A DNA stretch of 64,000 nt. It comes from Candidatus Heimdallarchaeota archaeon. Its GTDB lineage: Archaea > Asgardarchaeota > Heimdallarchaeia > JABLTI01. The stretch spans positions 160,001 to 224,000 of the forward strand of contig JAHLVW010000066.1 of the NCBI GenBank assembly GCA_019058275.1. Direction: 5' to 3'. The translations under genes were made by a program, and so were the position numbers. Below the pieces are notes generated by a model, which ran no database searches, was not told the DNA's origin, and saw only the letters and a list, made by a program, of their open reading frames with translations. The stretch's first letter is position 1. Each line of letters opens with the position of its first letter. Below, in pieces: positions 6,070 to 14,442 of this stretch.

Positions 6070-7161
6070 ATGGATAGAATGATAGTAGATCGCCAAAAAA
6101 AATTAAAGGGTTTGATGGAATCAACAGGCTCTGATTGCTTGATTCTATTTGCAGGTGTTGATTTATTCTACGCAACTGGATTAATGACTCATGCAAGTGA
6201 AAGATTAACATGTTCAATAATACCTCAAGAAAGTGAACCAATTCTAATCTGTCCAAGTTTTGAGAAGAGTAGAATGGAAAAAGGTATTCAAACAGGATCT
6301 ATCAGAACTTGGGAAGAAGATGAAAATCCATTTCAAATGTTGGTAGCTATAATAAAGGAATTGGAAATTGACAATAAGAACATATCATTAGATAATAAAT
6401 TATGGTTTGATTGGTTTCTCAGAATAAGCGAACAACTCCCAAAAGCAAATTTCGTAAATGCTACAGACATTGTGCAAGTAGCTAGACTAGTTAAAACTGA
6501 AGATGAGATTGTTTTAATGCGAGAAGCAACCAAAATAGCTTCCGATTCAATCATTAAGACCTTCGATCAAGTTACACCAGGAATGACTGAAACTGACGTT
6601 TCAAAAATAATCCAAGAAGAATTATCGAAAGCTTGTAGACCTGCCTTTGGGTTAGTACAATCGGGTCCTAATTCAGCTCTTCCACATGGTTCCCCAACTG
6701 GACGAACAATTGAGAAAAACGATGTGTTGCTAATTGATGCTGGTCCAATTTACAAAGGTTATTATGGTGACATAACGATTACCTCTGTAATTGGTGAACC
6801 TTCTGGAAAATTCAAGAAAATCTATGATAGTGTCTATAGAGCCAATAGAGCATCTTTTGAAACCTCAAAAGAAGGTGTGAAATGTGAAGATGTCGATAAG
6901 GCTGCAAGAGAAGTCATTACAAAAGATGGATATGATAAGTACTTCACTCACAGATTAGGTCATGGAATTGGTATCGAAGGGCATGAAGCACCTTACATGG
7001 TTAATGGAAATAAGCTAGTGCTAAAAGAGGGAATGTGTCATACAGTAGAACCTGGAATTTATATCGAAGGAGAATTTGGAGTAAGAATAGAAGACGACGT
7101 AGTTGTAAGAAAAGACACTTGTGAATTTCTTTATGAAACTCCAAGATTTTTGTGGAAATAA
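6070..7161 (+). CDS. pepQ: Xaa-Pro peptidase (M24)
   Basis: Creatinase N-domain; LIDAG, GDIT, HRLGHGIG-HEAP, TVEPGIY, GVRIEDD. Confidence 0.93.
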   Translation: MDRMIVDRQKKLKGLMESTGSDCLILFAGVDLFYATGLMTHASERLTCSIIPQESEPILICPSFEKSRMEKGIQTGSIRTWEEDENPFQMLVAIIKELEIDNKNISLDNKLWFDWFLRISEQLPKANFVNATDIVQVARLVKTEDEIVLMREATKIASDSIIKTFDQVTPGMTETDVSKIIQEELSKACRPAFGLVQSGPNSALPHGSPTGRTIEKNDVLLIDAGPIYKGYYGDITITSVIGEPSGKFKKIYDSVYRANRASFETSKEGVKCEDVDKAAREVITKDGYDKYFTHRLGHGIGIEGHEAPYMVNGNKLVLKEGMCHTVEPGIYIEGEFGVRIEDDVVVRKDTCEFLYETPRFLWK

Positions 7162-7193
7162 TTCAAAGTTTATTGCACTTCCAGGGTGAAAAA

Positions 7194-7676
7194 TTGAGTA
7201 ACAATAAGGGAACATATCTTCTTTTTTTAGAAGTAAAAGAAGACATTACGATCGAGATAGGTTCTCTTGAAAACAACCATTTCCAAGAGAGCAATTACAT
7301 TTATGTTGGATCAGCCCTAAGTCCAGGTCGTTTTAAAAAAAGGTTAGATCGTCATAAAAGGAAAGAAAAGAAGATTTTTTGACATATTGATTATCTTTTA
7401 GGAGATGAAAAATGTACAATTAAGGCTATTGGAAATTTAACTTCTGATGAGAAAATCGAATGTGTATTGAACTCAAACATAAGAACAATTTTTTCTGAAG
7501 ATGTAATTTATCCTATCAAAGGTTTTGGATCATCTGATTGTAAGTGCGAAAGCCATTTGTCATTAATTAGGAATTTAACTATTGAAAACATTATAGAAAC
7601 TATTCAAAAAAAACTTGATTTTCAATTGGATTTTGTAAAAGCTAAATCTTCAACTTTTAATCTCAGTAGTTCTTAA
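7194..7676 (+). pseudogene. GIY-YIG (DUF123/Uri-type) endonuclease interrupted by in-frame TGA at conserved Trp
   Basis: GTYLL..YIYVGSA, RLDRH, KKIF*HIDYL (family motif WHIDYL), GFGSSDCKCESHL all in one frame. TTG start after GGTGA. Confidence 0.8.
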
Positions 7677-7753
7677 TGAGAACTCTTTTATTTCTTAAAC
7701 AATCTACAATAAATGCTGAAGTATTAGTATAAAAGCGAGATTTGGTTATTATA

Positions 7754-8323
7754 ATGTCTGAAGTTGATACAATAGTATATTTCAAAGAACCAGGAAAAGC
7801 TAATACAGAAAAAGCATTAAAATTAGCATATGAGTATTCAGAAGAATACAAAATCCCTAAAGTTGTGATTGCTACTTCTAAAGGTGCAACTGCATCTAAA
7901 GCATTAGATATTTTTACTGATCTAGAAAAACTAGTAGTTGTAACACATGTTTTTGGTTTTATCAAACCTGGCAAAAATGAAATGGACCAAGATTTATTGG
8001 AATTGCTAAAAAAGAAAAATATTGCAGTACTCACTACAACACATGCTTTTGCAGGAATAGATAGAGCAATTCGTAGAAAACTTGGGACTTGGCAAATCGC
8101 AGAATTAGTAGCTGAAGTGTACAGGACTTTTGGACAAGGAACAAAAGTTTGTGCAGAAATAGTACTAATGGCAGCTGATGCGGGACTAATTCCAATAGAT
8201 CAAGATGTTTTAGCTGTAGGCGGTACGGGACGTGGAGCTGATACAGTCTGGCAAATATCACCAGCAAATACATTTAACTTCTTAGACTTAAAAATGAAGA
8301 TATGTTTATGTAAACCAATGTAA
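7754..8323 (+). CDS. Pyruvate kinase C-terminal-like domain protein (MTH1675-like)
   Basis: YFKEPGKANT, FGQGTKVCAEIVLMAADAG, GGTGRGADT. Confidence 0.88.
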   Translation: MSEVDTIVYFKEPGKANTEKALKLAYEYSEEYKIPKVVIATSKGATASKALDIFTDLEKLVVVTHVFGFIKPGKNEMDQDLLELLKKKNIAVLTTTHAFAGIDRAIRRKLGTWQIAELVAEVYRTFGQGTKVCAEIVLMAADAGLIPIDQDVLAVGGTGRGADTVWQISPANTFNFLDLKMKICLCKPM

Positions 8324-8326
8324 TGT

Positions 8327-8794
8327 CTAATGAAACCTTTCTGCTGCATTCTTCAAATAATCTCTAGCATTATCTCGAGAGCCTTGTTTAAGTATCATTT
8401 CTTTGAAATATTGATATTTATCATCAGTTAAATCGAATTTTTCTTTTAGTAGATTCTTAATTTCAGTTTCGGAATAGTCTCGAGGTAATTCAGCAATATA
8501 TTCTGCAACGTCAAGAATCGAAGCATCTTTCATAATTTCTTTTTTAGGTTCACCAAAAATTTGTTTTGAAAGAGTTTCATGGTCATCATTCCACGTTCGA
8601 ATAATTATTTCAAAATGCTCTCCACCTTGTTTCGGGAAAACTTGAATTTCTAAGGATCTATCGTCATTACGTAAACTATAACCAAAACAATCTTCTAAAC
8701 TATCTTTTTTTAACTCAACCCTTTCTTCAAATCTGTTTAGAAGAGTTTCTACCTCAGTATTGGAATTCAAATGAAAAACTAATTCCTTTACCAA
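8327..8794 (-). CDS. Hypothetical cytoplasmic protein, paralogue of 11047-11496
   Basis: TTG start after GGTGA; near-ungapped alignment to 11047-11496. Confidence 0.8.
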   Translation of the reverse strand: MVKELVFHLNSNTEVETLLNRFEERVELKKDSLEDCFGYSLRNDDRSLEIQVFPKQGGEHFEIIIRTWNDDHETLSKQIFGEPKKEIMKDASILDVAEYIAELPRDYSETEIKNLLKEKFDLTDDKYQYFKEMILKQGSRDNARDYLKNAAERFH

Positions 8795-8896
8795 ACAGTT
8801 TCACCAAAATCATATTCTTTAGGTCAATGCTATTATTTATCATTGGTTCATCCTTCTATTTAACTAATTAGGTATTTTTCATAAAAGCGCAATAAT

Positions 8897-8932
8897 AAAA
8901 AAAAAGTAGGAATTTGGAGAACCAAAATTCCT
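8897..8932 (-). terminator. Hairpin plus U-tract after the PLD gene
   Basis: aggaatttgg / ccaaaattcct imperfect inverted repeat, with an A-run at 8897-8905 (U-tract on minus strand). Confidence 0.5.
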
Positions 8933-8945
8933 TCTGTTTTATAGT

Positions 8946-10976
8946 TTAACGTTTTTTGATTCGTTTTAGAACTATTGTAACAACTGTTGATGAGAAAATT
9001 GATATGATAGCAATATAACCTGGTGATGTGGCTGTTGGTGTAACAGTTATGTAAACTAATCCTGGATTTGGAGTATCTGCAATGAAATCAACAGAGCAAT
9101 CATCAGTATCATGGTTTGCAGGATCTCTTTGTATACTCAAGGTTTCATCAATAGTTCCAGTCCATGGTATTACTCCTGTATATGATCCAGAACCCCAAAC
9201 AACAGCATCAACATTTCCATGTGGACCATTGAGTATAAGTTCATCACCGGAATTACCTAATAGTAACCCCTCATAAACAAAATCATATGCAGGAGAAGTG
9301 TCACCTAAATCATTCATTTCGGTTGTATAAGCAGCTGAATCTCGAACGAAAACTAGAATATCTTCAGCAGAAAATGTTGTGCCATCAGGTATAGTATATA
9401 TGTCTTCACCATCTGTTACTTCCCATCCACCAATAGCTACATCAAAACTAAAGCCATTATATAACTCAAAGAATTCACCATCAGGTTCTGTTACAGCATC
9501 AAAGCGAACCTCTGAAATAAGTAAATGCCACCAATCCAAATTAACAATATTGAAATCGTATTCGTCAATTACTGGATCTCCAACAGTAGGAGTTCCTATT
9601 ACCTTAATTTGATGTATACCATCGTCATAAGCAGTTGTATCAAGATTAAAGGTTTCTGAACCATCTGGTATGGACCAAGTGTGCACTAAAACATTATCAA
9701 TGTATAATGTTCCTGAAGTGAAAGGTCCAATATAGAATCCTGCTTCAATTTCAAAAGCATTATCAATTACAGTGTTAGGTAATGGTTTGATGATTTCAAC
9801 TTCAGGTAGAAATCCTGAAGGTATTTCGGTATAATTCTCCCAATCCCACTCGAATACATCTCCCAAATAACTAGCAATCTTAGTATTTTTTACAATAGCT
9901 CCTGCTTCTCGATTTTCCCATACTGAACCATTTGACCAATTAATACTTGAGACGGAAACATACTCCCCATCTACTCGTAAGAATTTATTATGATTATAAA
10001 GACTTTTAGAGAACCTGACTTCAATGCCATTTTGTAAAAGCAACTCCGTAACATTTTTTGAAGCTGTAGTTGGCTCTGGATATATCACTCTTACATCTAT
10101 TCCACTAATTGCTGCATCTATTAAATCGTATGTTAAATCACATGTATGTGTTAAATACTGTTGTTGTACATCAATTGTTGAAGTTGCATTTTCAATTAAG
10201 GATGATAGCATTGCATAACTATTGTTTGGTGAGAAAATAGGTATGACTTCCATGTATTCTGTAATAGATAAAGGATTAACTTTAACAGGTACATATGTAC
10301 CAGAGCTTTCACTAGGTAATGTATAATCAGGATCTGTCCCTGAATAAGCTGTTGCTTTTCCATAATCTTCCCAAAAAATATCTTCATAGATGGTAGCAAT
10401 ATCAGTATCATCAAACATCAAACCCATTTCTCTATTTTCACGTGCACCTGTATCAGCTGGCATACTTGTAGGTGCCCAATTACCTGAATAAACATAGGTA
10501 TATTGTGAATCTACAACCCAGAATTTTGCATGTGTAAAATCATAATTTAGTGTTGTCCATAGTACTTCAATATCAAAACTGCTTAGTTGAAAAGCTGCTT
10601 CCTCAGTATAATCATCCTCATATCCATTGACATGGTCTTGTTCCAGAAGAACAATTACATCTACACTATTTGTCTCTTTAGCATAAATCAAAGAATTAAT
10701 CAAATTTTGACTTGAAAGAGTGTAAACTTCAAGATAAAACGTAGATGTAGCTCCATGAATAGAAGCATTCACTACATCAAATACATTATCAGGACCTACA
10801 AAGGCTTTTGTAGGAATTGTACCTTTGACTTTTTCTGTAAAATTTTCAATAGCATAATTCTCTATATCTAGAGGATTTTCACATGCGCTCACATTCTCTT
10901 TTTTCATCCAAGTAGAAGTAAAAGGCAGCAATAAAAAGCTGACTGTTACAACTAACAAAAACTTTCTATTCATCAT
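8946..10976 (-). CDS. Secreted phospholipase D family protein with Ig-like and lamin-tail (LTD) domains and C-terminal PGY-TM-KKR anchor
   Basis: Signal peptide; two HKD motifs (HAKFWVVD..SGNW, HNKFLRVD..SINWS); LTD motif LISEV..EFFELYN..GGWEVTD; C-terminus SPGYIAII...KRIKKR. Confidence 0.9.
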   Translation of the reverse strand: MMNRKFLLVVTVSFLLLPFTSTWMKKENVSACENPLDIENYAIENFTEKVKGTIPTKAFVGPDNVFDVVNASIHGATSTFYLEVYTLSSQNLINSLIYAKETNSVDVIVLLEQDHVNGYEDDYTEEAAFQLSSFDIEVLWTTLNYDFTHAKFWVVDSQYTYVYSGNWAPTSMPADTGARENREMGLMFDDTDIATIYEDIFWEDYGKATAYSGTDPDYTLPSESSGTYVPVKVNPLSITEYMEVIPIFSPNNSYAMLSSLIENATSTIDVQQQYLTHTCDLTYDLIDAAISGIDVRVIYPEPTTASKNVTELLLQNGIEVRFSKSLYNHNKFLRVDGEYVSVSSINWSNGSVWENREAGAIVKNTKIASYLGDVFEWDWENYTEIPSGFLPEVEIIKPLPNTVIDNAFEIEAGFYIGPFTSGTLYIDNVLVHTWSIPDGSETFNLDTTAYDDGIHQIKVIGTPTVGDPVIDEYDFNIVNLDWWHLLISEVRFDAVTEPDGEFFELYNGFSFDVAIGGWEVTDGEDIYTIPDGTTFSAEDILVFVRDSAAYTTEMNDLGDTSPAYDFVYEGLLLGNSGDELILNGPHGNVDAVVWGSGSYTGVIPWTGTIDETLSIQRDPANHDTDDCSVDFIADTPNPGLVYITVTPTATSPGYIAIISIFSSTVVTIVLKRIKKR

Positions 10977-11046
10977 AATACTTAGTAAAATGTTTTGTTT
11001 TTAAATATGTATTTGTAGAAAAAATAAAAGAAAATCAATTTATTAA

Positions 11047-11496
11047 TTACTTGCTAAGAATTTCATATACATCAAGAATTGCTTGAGGTCCATGTCCTCT
11101 TTTACCAAATCGTTCTAATTGCTTATAGTATTGTTGAAATTCATCATCTTCAATATCTAATATATCATTGATTTCTTCTTTACTTTTGGTTTTAATTTCA
11201 GGAATACTCATTACTTCTTTAGCAAAATCATTCAAACTTAATTTTTCTTGACTAATTTTGATAGGATTTCCTATTATTCCATTTATAAAAGTAATATCTT
11301 CATTAGAAGCACCTTTAATTCTCAAGACGTATTTAGTTTCATCCACTCTTTGTATAATTCTAATTTCAGATGGAACAGAAATAATTTTTGTTGTATCATC
11401 TTCAAGAGTTTTTACTATTGTTCCAAATTTTTCTGCTATTTTCACTAACATTGATTCAATATCACTATCTTTTGGGAGTTCATATTGTGCTTTCAT
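11047..11496 (-). CDS. Hypothetical cytoplasmic protein, paralogue of 8327-8794
   Basis: Alignment to 8327-8794; possible C-terminal helical/HTH-like segment. Confidence 0.8.
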   Translation of the reverse strand: MKAQYELPKDSDIESMLVKIAEKFGTIVKTLEDDTTKIISVPSEIRIIQRVDETKYVLRIKGASNEDITFINGIIGNPIKISQEKLSLNDFAKEVMSIPEIKTKSKEEINDILDIEDDEFQQYYKQLERFGKRGHGPQAILDVYEILSK

Positions 11497-11554
11497 ACAA
11501 TATTTAACTCACAAGTCTTTTTATAGCTATCTTTAGGAGAAAAACTATGCACTT

Positions 11555-12673
11555 TTAGAATAAATCCTTTACTGATAATTCGATAGCTTTTACGAAATCA
11601 TCTGGAGTTACAAATGGTATATCTATGTTTTCTGATTGATAGACTTGAGCAACATTAGAATAGATGTGCTTAGGGTTTACAAGCTTACCAATTAATGCAT
11701 TCTCTATTAGTTCTGGAGCATTCATTGGATTAGCTGAAAAATCACCACTAATCATAACATCTTTGAAGAACTCATTTTCGACCTCAAAGAATACTCGAAT
11801 AAGTCCTCCTTGAGCTTTGTAAACAGATTCATAGATTTGAGTTGATGCAGAAATTTTGACTTTACGTTTCTCCATTAGCTCTGATCTTCGATGATCTGCT
11901 ATGTTTAACCATTCATCACTTCTATAACATTCAAGAAGCCCGTCATTTATTTCTTGTTCTCTTGGTGAAAACTTGTTATCTATTTTGAACTTCACATCTA
12001 GGACTTTCTCAAAATCCTCAATCAATATTTTCTTGACATCTTGCCTGTCTGGTAGATTTTCGAGAAAACCTTTTATAGTTCCTAATCGTTCTTTCAAACT
12101 TGAAGCTATTTTATCTCTGAATTTTTCATTGGGAACTTTCAAGATTTTAGACATTTCCTCAACATTAAAATCAAAAATCAAATTGCCAGTAAGAATACGT
12201 CCACCACCTACTTCAGCAGCACCATTACCGGAGATTTTCTTACCATCAGCTACAATATCATTAACCGGGGCATATTGAGCATCAATGCCAATTTGCCTGT
12301 AAGTATTGATTGGTGCTTGGAGTATTTTTTCATATAATTCGCTAACATTTCTAGGAATTTTTTTACTGTCTAAACGAGAAATGACTTGATAGAAAAGCTG
12401 TCCACTATCAAGATAAACTGCTCCACCACCAAGAGGTCTTCGAACGATCGGGATATTGTTCTTCTTGCAATAATCAGTATCAACTTCTTCCTCGATTATT
12501 TGATGATACCCTACACATACAACAGGATCTTTGGGCCAACATATGATTATCGTATTCTCAATATCATCATATTTTTCCATTGCTAATCCTACAGTGTGAT
12601 AAACAGTTTGAGATTCAATACCTGGTAATCCATCAAATTCCAAAAGACGCCATTCTTCAATCATAATAAACAA
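11555..12673 (-). CDS. lplA: Lipoate-protein ligase A
   Basis: RRPLGGGAVYLD, PVNDI..GKKISGNG, C-terminal domain with SGDF. Confidence 0.92.
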   Translation of the reverse strand: MFIMIEEWRLLEFDGLPGIESQTVYHTVGLAMEKYDDIENTIIICWPKDPVVCVGYHQIIEEEVDTDYCKKNNIPIVRRPLGGGAVYLDSGQLFYQVISRLDSKKIPRNVSELYEKILQAPINTYRQIGIDAQYAPVNDIVADGKKISGNGAAEVGGGRILTGNLIFDFNVEEMSKILKVPNEKFRDKIASSLKERLGTIKGFLENLPDRQDVKKILIEDFEKVLDVKFKIDNKFSPREQEINDGLLECYRSDEWLNIADHRRSELMEKRKVKISASTQIYESVYKAQGGLIRVFFEVENEFFKDVMISGDFSANPMNAPELIENALIGKLVNPKHIYSNVAQVYQSENIDIPFVTPDDFVKAIELSVKDLF

Positions 12674-12782
12674 CCATCATTCTTGTTTCTGTTTTGTTTT
12701 AATTATATAGCTAATTAATTTTTCCAAATGACTTTTAAAACTAATATGCTTTAGAAAATGTAAAGCTTTCTTTGGGATTAAG

Positions 12783-13148
12783 ATGAAAATAGAGAAAACT
12801 AAATTTGGTTCGATAACCATTGATGGTATCAAATACAAACATGATATATACATCAACGTTGATGGTTCTATCTCTAAGAGAAAAAAAGAATTATCAAGAC
12901 CAATTAGTAAAGGTCATACTGTTTTAGGACCTTTAGAAATACAGCATCTACTAGATCAAAAACCAGATACTCTTGTTATTGGAAAGGGACAATATGGAGT
13001 TTTACCAATGCCTGAAGAATCACACAAATTACTTGAAAAATCTAAAATCATAGTTATTAAAGATAAAACTCCAGTTGTTATACATTTGTTAAATAAATTG
13101 GTTGAGGAAAAAGCTAAGGTTGTAGCAATATTGCATCTAACTTGCTAA
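12783..13148 (+). CDS. Mth938-like domain protein
   Basis: FGSITIDG, LVIGKGQYG, C-terminal HLTC. Confidence 0.88.
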   Translation: MKIEKTKFGSITIDGIKYKHDIYINVDGSISKRKKELSRPISKGHTVLGPLEIQHLLDQKPDTLVIGKGQYGVLPMPEESHKLLEKSKIIVIKDKTPVVIHLLNKLVEEKAKVVAILHLTC

Positions 13149-13239
13149 GGTCTCATGAGAAATTTTCATACTTGAAGTGTAATATCTAAATAATTGAAAT
13201 GCACTAATGGTTATTAGATAAGAACTGAGGTAAAATATT

Positions 13240-14442
13240 ATGATCTCAACAACCGAGTTAACTGAAAAGGTTTTCACAATTAGAGATCCAAGTTATACTA
13301 AAGTTACCTCGCCAAAAATTATTGCTGCTGAAAAGAGAATAAACAAGTTTCTGAAACGTAAGGATGTTGAATCAACTGCAACACCCAACAATGATGGAGA
13401 AATACTAGTTTTATTCATCCATGGATTTGCTGCATCCAAGTACTGCTGGTTAGATCCAGATATTGGTAACATGGGTTGGGTAAAGGATTGCAAGAATGAT
13501 CCTGAACACATTGATTTTGGTTGGCATGCTTTACCACCTCCACCATATATTCCTGTTGCTTGGACAATGTCTGAGCAGCTTGTTCCAATCGGTGCTACAC
13601 AAATAATGGATAAAAATGGAATAGAATGGCTTACATATTCACAAGAATCAGCATTCGGTGATATTGAGGTTTCAGTAAAAGAATTAGATACAGTTCTAAA
13701 AGCAATTAAGGAAATCTATGGAAATAGAAGAATAATCATTATTGCTCATTCTCGAGGAGGATTACTTTCTAAAAGATATCTTGACATTGCAGAGAAAACT
13801 AACATAGAAAAATTAGTAACTTTTGGAACACCATATGGTGGTTCATTCATGTCTGCTTTTGAATTATTTAGACTTCCCTCTAAACATTTTTTGAATAGAG
13901 TGAAAACTGCAAGAAAGCTATGGGATGTTTCTCAAGAAAGGAAAGTTGAATCTATTGCAACAAAACAGCTAGCTCCAGATTCTGATTTCCTCAATGAACT
14001 TTCAGCATCAGGGTGCAGAGATGATGTAAAATATGTTAATGTTGCTGGAACATCATCACTCATATCTTACATCTATGCTTGGAGATGGAAGACATCCTCA
14101 CTTAAACCAAAATACAAAATAGCAAAACAAAAAATGAATGAACGTAAAAAACTAATAGATCAGAAACAACCAATTATCGATTGGTATAATTTACCAAGTA
14201 ATTATCTACTTCATCCTTTTAATTGGTTGTTGGAAGCAAGAAAAATCATGCAGATTTATCCTAAAATTGGTTATCATGAAGTATTGCAGGGAGATGGAGC
14301 AGTCTCAATAAAGAGTGCATTAATGTCCAATGAAGAAGTAAAGCATTATATCATAGATAAAAATCATGTTGATATGACTTGTTCAAAACCAGGTTATGAA
14401 ATAATGATTAGAGAAGTTAATGAAAGTATAAACGACAAATGA
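13240..14442 (+). CDS. Alpha/beta hydrolase (lipase/PGAP1-like)
   Basis: FIHGF, nucleophile elbow AHSRGG, GTPYGGS, GDGAV, NHVDM. Confidence 0.85.
   Translation: MISTTELTEKVFTIRDPSYTKVTSPKIIAAEKRINKFLKRKDVESTATPNNDGEILVLFIHGFAASKYCWLDPDIGNMGWVKDCKNDPEHIDFGWHALPPPPYIPVAWTMSEQLVPIGATQIMDKNGIEWLTYSQESAFGDIEVSVKELDTVLKAIKEIYGNRRIIIIAHSRGGLLSKRYLDIAEKTNIEKLVTFGTPYGGSFMSAFELFRLPSKHFLNRVKTARKLWDVSQERKVESIATKQLAPDSDFLNELSASGCRDDVKYVNVAGTSSLISYIYAWRWKTSSLKPKYKIAKQKMNERKKLIDQKQPIIDWYNLPSNYLLHPFNWLLEARKIMQIYPKIGYHEVLQGDGAVSIKSALMSNEEVKHYIIDKNHVDMTCSKPGYEIMIREVNESINDK

Follow-up and report, generated by a model that had tools for sequence, protein, structure and literature searches.

A 64,000-nucleotide stretch of the genome of Candidatus Heimdallarchaeota archaeon (contig JAHLVW010000066.1, positions 160,001 to 224,000; hereafter the window) contains four co-oriented genes on the minus strand between positions 8327 and 12673, as read from the open reading frames (ORFs). 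These are lplA (11555-12673), a small gene termed B (11047-11496), a gene for a surface-anchored enzyme of the phospholipase D (PLD) superfamily (8946-10976), and a second small gene termed A (8327-8794). The genome is 4.1 Mb in size and 93% complete. An earlier note on this DNA had proposed that the PLD and the two paralogues that bracket it form a new system. A survey across Asgard archaea found that the conserved unit is one small gene together with a PLD gene, and not the bracket of two paralogues. The A/B family very probably consists of dedicated PLD partners.

The PLD is a protein of 676 amino acids. Its signal sequence (amino acids 1-24; 10905-10976) has a basic n-region, NRK, that is followed by a hydrophobic core. 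The catalytic domain (amino acids 45-400; 9777-10844) contains HKD motif 1 (H149-D156; 10509-10532) and HKD motif 2 (H329-D336; 9969-9992). Two PLDc_2 matches (E 6e-37), a PLDc match (5e-8), and an LTD match (2e-9) were found in Pfam. The lamin-tail (LTD) domain (amino acids 485-594; 9195-9524) scored 38.2 bits against a cut-off of 34.3 for PF00932. The C-terminal anchor (8949-9026) consists of a Thr-rich linker, a PGY motif, a hydrophobic helix, and a KRIKKR tail. Thus, the two HKD units, the LTD, and the anchor that the earlier note described are all present; the immunoglobulin-like ("Ig") region that it placed between the catalytic and LTD domains gave no family match. Among 70 PLD orthologues, H149, K151, D156, and N166 and their counterparts H329, K331, D336, and N346 are invariant, so that both HxK(x)4D motifs and both S/G-x-N motifs are kept. 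Judged by these residues, the protein is a member of the PLD (HKD) superfamily and its catalytic motifs are intact.

The nearest named relatives of the enzyme are NucT (47 bits), DrmC (62 bits), and cardiolipin synthase, all far below their family cut-offs. The nearest relatives in the PDB are MitoPLD/Zucchini (4ggj, E 6e-7) and Nuc (1byr, E 6e-4). The Nuc/NucT/MitoPLD-Zucchini branch shares the intact HxK(x)4D motifs. Unlike that branch, the Asgard PLD has two HKD units per chain, a signal sequence, an anchor, and, in the Heimdall groups, an LTD. Lipids and nucleic acids are both candidate substrates. Orthologues were found in 209 of 400 Asgard genomes at E <= 1e-15, and the gene is single-copy in the window genome and in most others. 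The LTD occurs in the long Heimdall form only; outside the Heimdall groups the protein has about 440 amino acids and comprises a signal sequence, the catalytic domain, and an anchor.

The proteins encoded by A (155 amino acids, with a TTG start) and B (149 amino acids) are homologous, as was claimed in the earlier note from an alignment over their full length. BLASTP aligned about 130 residues with 22% identity and 8% gaps (E 1e-5). Profiles of the A and B subfamilies aligned over 141 columns (hhalign probability 86.6%, E 4.5e-6), and a single hidden Markov model (HMM) picks out both proteins and nothing else in the 4.1-Mb genome. Given these results, the similarity reflects homology and not chance. 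The two are also joined through many intermediate sequences. Neither belongs to a family in Pfam, NCBIfam, or PADLOC, and neither matched a toxin family; the description of the family as unrecognized is therefore upheld. No signal peptide or hydrophobic segment was found in either protein, the maximum 19-residue Kyte-Doolittle mean being 0.39 for A and 0.77 for B, and across the small partners of the whole family it does not exceed 1.45. The ORFs bear out the claim that two signal-less proteins are encoded, co-oriented, around a secreted and anchored PLD with lplA directly upstream. The small partners are mostly acidic, with a median isoelectric point of 5.8 and 71% below 7 (4.95 for A and 4.96 for B).

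The family HMM matches 62 of 400 Asgard genomes. To judge the range outside of Asgard archaea, all of 1.84 billion cluster representatives were scanned with HMMER, and 42 family matches of about 80-180 amino acids were returned. All of the named matches are Asgard (Heimdall-, Odin-, Asgardarchaeia or Promethearchaeota). Word-indexed searches with the small proteins matched only Asgard "hypothetical proteins". The family is thus restricted to Asgard archaea. Searches of the literature on archaeal or Asgard phospholipase D and on lamin-tail PLDs found nothing on the module, and both the family and the module appear to be undescribed in the libraries and literature searched.

The surroundings of 60 HMM hits were surveyed together with 20 PLD loci from genomes that lacked a match to the first profile. 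A total of 77 of the 80 small genes directly adjoin a PLD orthologue. The other three lie at contig ends, and in each case the contig breaks off on the side on which a PLD is expected. All 77 small genes that could be tested are therefore linked to a PLD, the opposite of the unlinked homologues that the earlier note had named as speaking against its proposal. The pairing is found in 13 Asgard families, here numbered with the prefix f. At 40 loci (f1, f3, one f8, and one f24) the small gene is upstream of the PLD and co-oriented, which is the position of B, with a spacer that is mostly 8-114 nt and has one outlier of 1546 nt. At 30 loci, in nine families (f10, f11, f12, f26, f27, f28, f29, f31, and f33), the two genes are head-to-head and divergent with a spacer that is mostly 50-240 nt. 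The downstream co-oriented arrangement of A was found at six loci, all in f1, and in one f24 locus (L086) the small gene is downstream on the opposite strand, convergent with the PLD.

No other neighbouring gene family is common to more than two Asgard families, and lplA and the gene on the far side of A (PK_C-like, described below) neighbour the module in f1 only. A single small gene with a PLD is the widespread and ancestral state, and A is an extra gene restricted to the genus of the window. The idea that the two-paralogue bracket is itself the system does not hold, and a regulatory heterodimer of A and B, which had also been proposed, cannot be the general mechanism, as most genomes carry a single copy. 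The two-gene module is old within Asgard archaea. It appears to have been inherited largely vertically, since the clades in the trees mostly follow family boundaries.

The AlphaFold2 model of A has a mean predicted local distance difference test score (pLDDT) of 89.7. It consists of an N-terminal beta-alpha-beta4-alpha domain (amino acids 1-90), a G-x-P turn, a short strand that bears the near-invariant Ser of the family, and a C-terminal four-helix domain. B likewise begins with an alpha/beta domain, followed by a G76-x-P78 motif and a conserved strand around S87, and ends in a four-helix domain. A Foldseek search with the full model of A had no match at E <= 0.001, and the best VIA match had a Z of 7.9, within the noise range of the tool. 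The ESM Atlas gave no usable match for the family, and the family profile gave no match below E 0.097 against the PDB. The N-terminal domain of A aligned with TBP-like alpha/beta domains at Z 7.4-7.9 (rmsd 2.4-3.0 Å over 66-87 residues), again in the noise range. These domains, which include the RNase H3 N-domain, the NRD of RnlA/LsoA, Mediator Med18/20, and phosphoglucomutase domain 4, have the same beta-alpha-beta4-alpha order. The likeness is one of topology only, at Z values that the tool also gives to models that have no true relative, and comes with no sequence similarity. When the C-terminal domain was searched alone (model pLDDT 90), the best Foldseek E was 2.9 and the best VIA Z was 4.9, also in the noise range.

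In f31 the partner is a protein of 85 amino acids that consists of the N-terminal domain alone and ends at an FGEPYRV motif. It was seen at seven loci (L092, L093, L103, L104, L105, L110, and L111), three of which have longer ORF calls. The N-terminal domain is taken to be the core of the family because f31 keeps that domain alone. This protein is a natural minimal version of the partner that could define the core interaction.

A complex of B with the PLD was modelled from amino acids 28-400 of the PLD, which exclude the signal sequence, with our own alignments supplied, in three runs and with three controls. The interface score (ipSAE) was 0.85-0.87 over the three runs (0.86), and the best of the three controls reached 0.00. 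At least 85% of contacts are common to the runs, and the pLDDT of the partner is at least 88. The mark used for ipSAE is reached by 58 of 80 solved complexes and by 2 of 110 mismatched pairs, and it is only a rough guide here, where our own alignments were used. A memorized homologous complex is unlikely because of the missing PDB match for the family profile. On the PLD side, the predicted interface comprises residues 113-121, 137, 142-146, 202-212, 274, 276, 304-307, and 346-354. Three invariant residues, Y274, S348, and N346, belong to it, the last of them being the Asn in the second HxK..D..SxN motif, and so do positions 350 and 354 and the loop 142-146 that precedes H149. On the B side, it comprises the sheet face at amino acids 29-62, the conserved strand 84-89, and the helices at 122-140, and it includes the most conserved stretch of the family, around S87. 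The model thus places B across the active-site face of the PLD, which suggests that B could occlude the active site. Since the short PLDs hold just the catalytic domain and their signals, this domain would be the shared target of the small proteins.

The predicted interface also stands out in the clade of window-type modules. The PLD interface of this clade has an identity of 0.20-0.37 to other f1/f3 PLDs, compared with 0.51-0.57 for the rest of the domain. The B interface has an identity of 0.09-0.27, compared with 0.26-0.35 overall. Both sides of the predicted interface have therefore diverged together in a lineage-specific manner.

The manner in which the PLD leaves the cell determines where the partner can meet it. 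All 70 PLD orthologues have an N-terminal signal sequence and a C-terminal hydrophobic transmembrane helix that ends in a basic tail. A search of the window genome, which is 93% complete, found neither TatC nor TatA, and TatC was found in none of 11 f1 genomes and none of 31 f3 genomes, two closed genomes included. The PLD is probably exported via Sec, with the partner staying in the cytoplasm. As TatC is absent, the partner cannot travel out with a folded PLD, and under Sec export it would therefore meet the PLD only before translocation. Many of the PLD N-termini look twin-arginine-like, with RR or RK/KR before the hydrophobic core (NRRFLL, MRRKYLF, and MRRTIF; examples with RR or RK are L052, L047, L050, and L075), despite the absence of TatC from nearly all of the genomes that bear the module. 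Tat-dependent export of the folded enzyme with a hitch-hiking partner was considered and rejected, as TatC and TatA are absent and the window PLD has RK, not RR. The anchors of the genus (the window, L032-L037, L052, and L053) share a Thr/Pro-rich linker, PGF or PGY, a hydrophobic helix, and a K/R tail. This arrangement resembles a PGF-CTERM sorting signal at the level of the motif only; no PGF-CTERM model matched at E <= 0.1, and the best archaeosortase-A-like ORF in the genome (G000:C51:34455-34736) scored 34 bits against a cut-off of 75.

The small protein probably binds the PLD directly, as the complex model predicts. We would give about an even chance to the fuller reading that a cytoplasmic partner binds the catalytic domain before export, either as a barstar-like inhibitor or as a chaperone. 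In this reading, the folded catalytic domain would be held by the concave face of the beta-sheet in the N-terminal domain, by the strand after the G-x-P turn, and by two C-terminal helices. Binding across the active-site face would keep PLD that has folded in the cytoplasm inactive or export-competent, and translocation of the PLD would then leave the partner in the cytoplasm. That the partner is an inhibitor, rather than purely a chaperone, is a tentative proposal with somewhat less than even odds.

Several points weigh against this reading. Binding rests on predicted confidence, and inhibition is deduced solely from the position of the interface. Sec substrates cross the membrane unfolded, so a protein that binds the folded enzyme could act only on PLD that has folded prematurely. 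Some PLD orthologues with comparable scores (E 1e-38 to 1e-59) have no detectable partner: all four of the f6 loci examined (L096, L097, L106, and L107) and one locus each of f19, f21, and f24 (L102, L108, and L109). In f6 the divergent neighbour of the PLD is an unrelated amidohydrolase (PF01979). Because these PLDs do without one, the partner is not indispensable, and it has been lost or replaced in some lineages. The best-scored contacts of the model fall on the 84-89 strand and the helices, and the f31 partner has neither. A global mirror-tree test across all f1/f3 pairs found no interface-specific covariation after correction for overall divergence (partial r -0.09). Finally, the head-to-head layout in nine families would also fit a regulator and its target.

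A related possibility is that the small protein does not inhibit the PLD but serves it as a dedicated chaperone for folding or export, which would hold or target the PLD pre-protein for Sec or aid its folding. The linkage and the complex model apply equally to this proposal. Export via Sec makes a cytoplasmic holding factor plausible, and the upstream co-oriented position with a short spacer in the Heimdall groups would suit co-expression. However, the modelled contact is with the folded catalytic domain, including residues of the active-site motifs, and the signal sequence lies outside of the model. The f6 orthologues also manage without a partner. We regard a pure chaperone as unlikely.

Somewhat less likely again is a role of the small protein as a new type of transcription factor for the adjacent PLD gene, with a possible helix-turn-helix (HTH)-like C-terminal domain and an N-terminal sensor domain. 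The shared intergenic region of 50-240 nt at the 30 head-to-head loci would be in keeping with such a role. The weak VIA neighbours of the C-terminal domain are mostly HTH or winged-helix proteins (ScpB, TRF, AsnC, and the DtxR family; Z 4.0-4.9), ScpB reaches Z 6.0 with the full A model, and the weak neighbours of the N-terminal fold include nucleic-acid-binding TBP-like domains (RNase H3 N-domain, Z 7.4). However, all of these Z values are within the stated noise range, the C-terminal domain gave no Foldseek match better than E 2.9, and no Pfam HTH was found in A or B. The earlier note had also thought the C-termini HTH-like; no fold support above noise was obtained for this, and the core of the family is the N-terminal domain, the C-terminal domain being absent from the f31 form. 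The proteins are mostly acidic, unlike typical DNA-binding regulators. When nine divergent intergenic regions of f12 were aligned, A/T-rich promoter-like blocks were seen and no convincing palindrome. The complex model, furthermore, sets the helical domain on the PLD.

The second copy, A, has a history of its own. Two copies of the small gene are confined to the genus of the window. Three relatives (G081, G084, and G087) lack A at junctions that are intact, with the PK_C-like gene coming immediately after the PLD. In a maximum-likelihood tree, a single clade unites the B-type (upstream) proteins of f1 and f3 (support 97/95). The A-type proteins form a clade of their own (100/100) that is grouped with the non-Heimdall head-to-head forms (96/91). 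Forcing all of the Heimdall proteins together costs 15.9 log-likelihood units (approximately unbiased test, p = 0.04), which is weak evidence, as the test was post hoc and the branches are long. Since A is missing at the junctions of relatives and is grouped with non-Heimdall forms, it did not arise recently as a tandem copy of B. Either A is an old paralogue that was kept only in this genus, or it was acquired from another Asgard lineage. Candidate roles for A are a second inhibitor of the same PLD and the partner of a PLD allele that was lost or exchanged.

The B and PLD genes diverge faster than their flanks. Identity to G082 is 32% for B and 49% for the PLD, compared with 73% for lplA and 83% for the PK_C-like gene. 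In the closest relative (L036; G085:C314:1-7664, compared with window positions 8566-13282), the lplA/DUF498 flank is 94% identical at the nucleotide level. The identity collapses exactly at the lplA/B boundary, and B has no nucleotide match and 32% amino-acid identity. This locus has two tandem PLDs, one of which is intact (684 amino acids) and the other split into a catalytic ORF of 403 amino acids and an Ig/LTD/anchor ORF of 508 amino acids. The A gene that follows the split PLD is 91% identical to that of the window. The locus could have arisen through allele replacement by recombination, or the contig could be a strain-chimeric metagenome-assembled genome contig.

A more far-reaching form of the partner reading is that the family is an Asgard-specific HKD/PLD inhibitor with a new fold that gates a surface phosphodiesterase for foreign (bacterial-type) phospholipids or extracellular DNA. 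The PLD would then work at the contact surface with partner organisms, and a co-evolution of specificity that is still ongoing would account for paralogue A and for the exchange of B/PLD alleles. Both parts of this proposal are speculative, and we consider them improbable.

The earlier note had proposed an effector/immunity module. In a competitive version of this, the PLD would attack neighbouring cells as an antagonistic effector, with B as the immunity protein cognate to it and A as an orphan immunity gene. The core idea, that enzyme and partner touch directly, agrees with the predicted tight contact (ipSAE 0.86), which stands well clear of the controls. The fast divergence of B and the PLD relative to the flanks, the replaced B/PLD segment with two tandem PLDs in G085, and the divergence of both predicted interface sides beyond the rest of each protein in the window-type clade would also be expected of it, and a divergent paralogue downstream of the enzyme recalls orphan immunity genes. 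Other observations speak against the competitive part. All 70 PLD orthologues have their own C-terminal membrane anchor, the Pfam matches of the PLD are PLDc_2/PLDc and LTD only with no delivery or secretion-system domain, and no accessory gene is conserved across families. The PLD is mostly single-copy, in the window genome and elsewhere, and the tree points to largely vertical inheritance; the replaced B/PLD segment in G085 and the grouping of A outside Heimdall depart from this pattern. A cytoplasmic protein could not shield a cell against the enzyme of a neighbour on its outer face. A and B have no PADLOC or toxin-family match, and the global test for interface covariation was negative. 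A competitive toxin-immunity system is therefore very unlikely.

Least credible of all is that the PLD was inserted into an old A-B tandem pair and that the linkage is incidental, which the bracket layout in the window would by itself allow; it is rejected because a pair of neighbouring small genes that lacks a PLD between or beside its members was seen at none of the 80 loci and in no genome, and in addition a single small gene with a PLD is the rule in 13 families and A is missing at the intact PLD/PK_C junctions of relatives.

The reading of a cytoplasmic partner that acts before export can be compared with known systems. Barnase-barstar, staphopain-staphostatin, NucA-Nin of Bacillus subtilis, and NucA-NuiA of Anabaena are pairs of a secreted hydrolase and a cytoplasmic inhibitor. 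The logic of the Asgard module resembles that of such pairs, as the gene for an exported hydrolase lies beside that for a small acidic protein with no signal peptide, whose predicted place is on the active-site face. Protection of the producer before export is a likely point of similarity. Unlike those inhibitors, A and B are confined to Asgard archaea, have no sequence or convincing fold similarity to them, and are putative inhibitors; the enzyme here is, moreover, an HKD/PLD-superfamily member. To our knowledge, no dedicated cytoplasmic inhibitor is known for an enzyme of this superfamily. The Tle5/PldA-Tli5 pairs of the type VI secretion system (T6SS) are similar in that a two-HKD PLD is encoded with a cognate binding protein, which is predicted here. 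Tli5 proteins are periplasmic and guard against an incoming toxin. In the Asgard module, unlike Tle5/Tli5, the partner is cytoplasmic, the PLD is on the surface of its own producer, inheritance appears largely vertical, and no secretion-system genes are nearby.

The spacers of the locus contain possible signals for transcription. The B-PLD spacer (10977-11046, minus strand; 70 nt) has T-runs after the B stop codon and a TATA-like A/T-rich box, TTTAAAA, about 30 nt before the PLD ATG, and these elements may have a transcriptional role. The PLD-A intergenic region (8795-8945, minus strand; 151 nt) has an imperfect hairpin, GGAATTTTGG / CCAAATTCC, at about 8909-8931, followed by a T-run (about 8894-8908) and then an A/T-rich stretch. 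A GGTGA is found 7 nt before the TTG start of A. By direct reading of these letters, A may be transcribed separately. A scan for sigma-70 promoters and simple intrinsic terminators, which is uninformative for an archaeon, called no terminator, the PLD-A hairpin included.

Other genes flank the module in the window. The lplA product has the Pfam LplA-B catalytic domain (E 1e-42) and a C-terminal domain. The PK_C-like gene (7742-8323, plus strand) encodes a stand-alone protein of 193 amino acids and is convergent with A, the two stop codons being 3 nt apart. Its match to the C-terminal alpha/beta domain of pyruvate kinase (PF02887) is below the threshold (25.6 bits, with a cut-off of 28), and the protein is 78-87% identical within the genus. 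Between it and an M24 peptidase gene there are two small ORFs on the plus strand, 7152-7382 (76 amino acids) and 7467-7676 (69 amino acids). The 76-amino-acid ORF is kept at 46-58% identity in every relative of the genus, and the 69-amino-acid ORF has a GFGSSDCKCESH motif. They may be one gene that was broken by a frame change or two small genes.

With these results, two "hypothetical proteins" become part of a defined, testable two-gene module that is conserved in a large part of the Asgard phylum. Few clearly extracellular Asgard enzymes are widely conserved, the PLD being among them, and whether its substrate is lipid head groups or DNA bears on the interplay of Asgard archaea with their syntrophic partners and the membranes of those partners. 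If the predicted contact is real, the small protein would be the first dedicated protein inhibitor or chaperone of an HKD enzyme outside of the bacterial T6SS immunity proteins, and co-expression of the partner could make Asgard PLDs expressible and assayable. If the gating-inhibitor proposal were also true, the family would be the first natural class of protein inhibitors for the PLD superfamily and would offer a handle on the processing of lipids or DNA at the Asgard cell surface.

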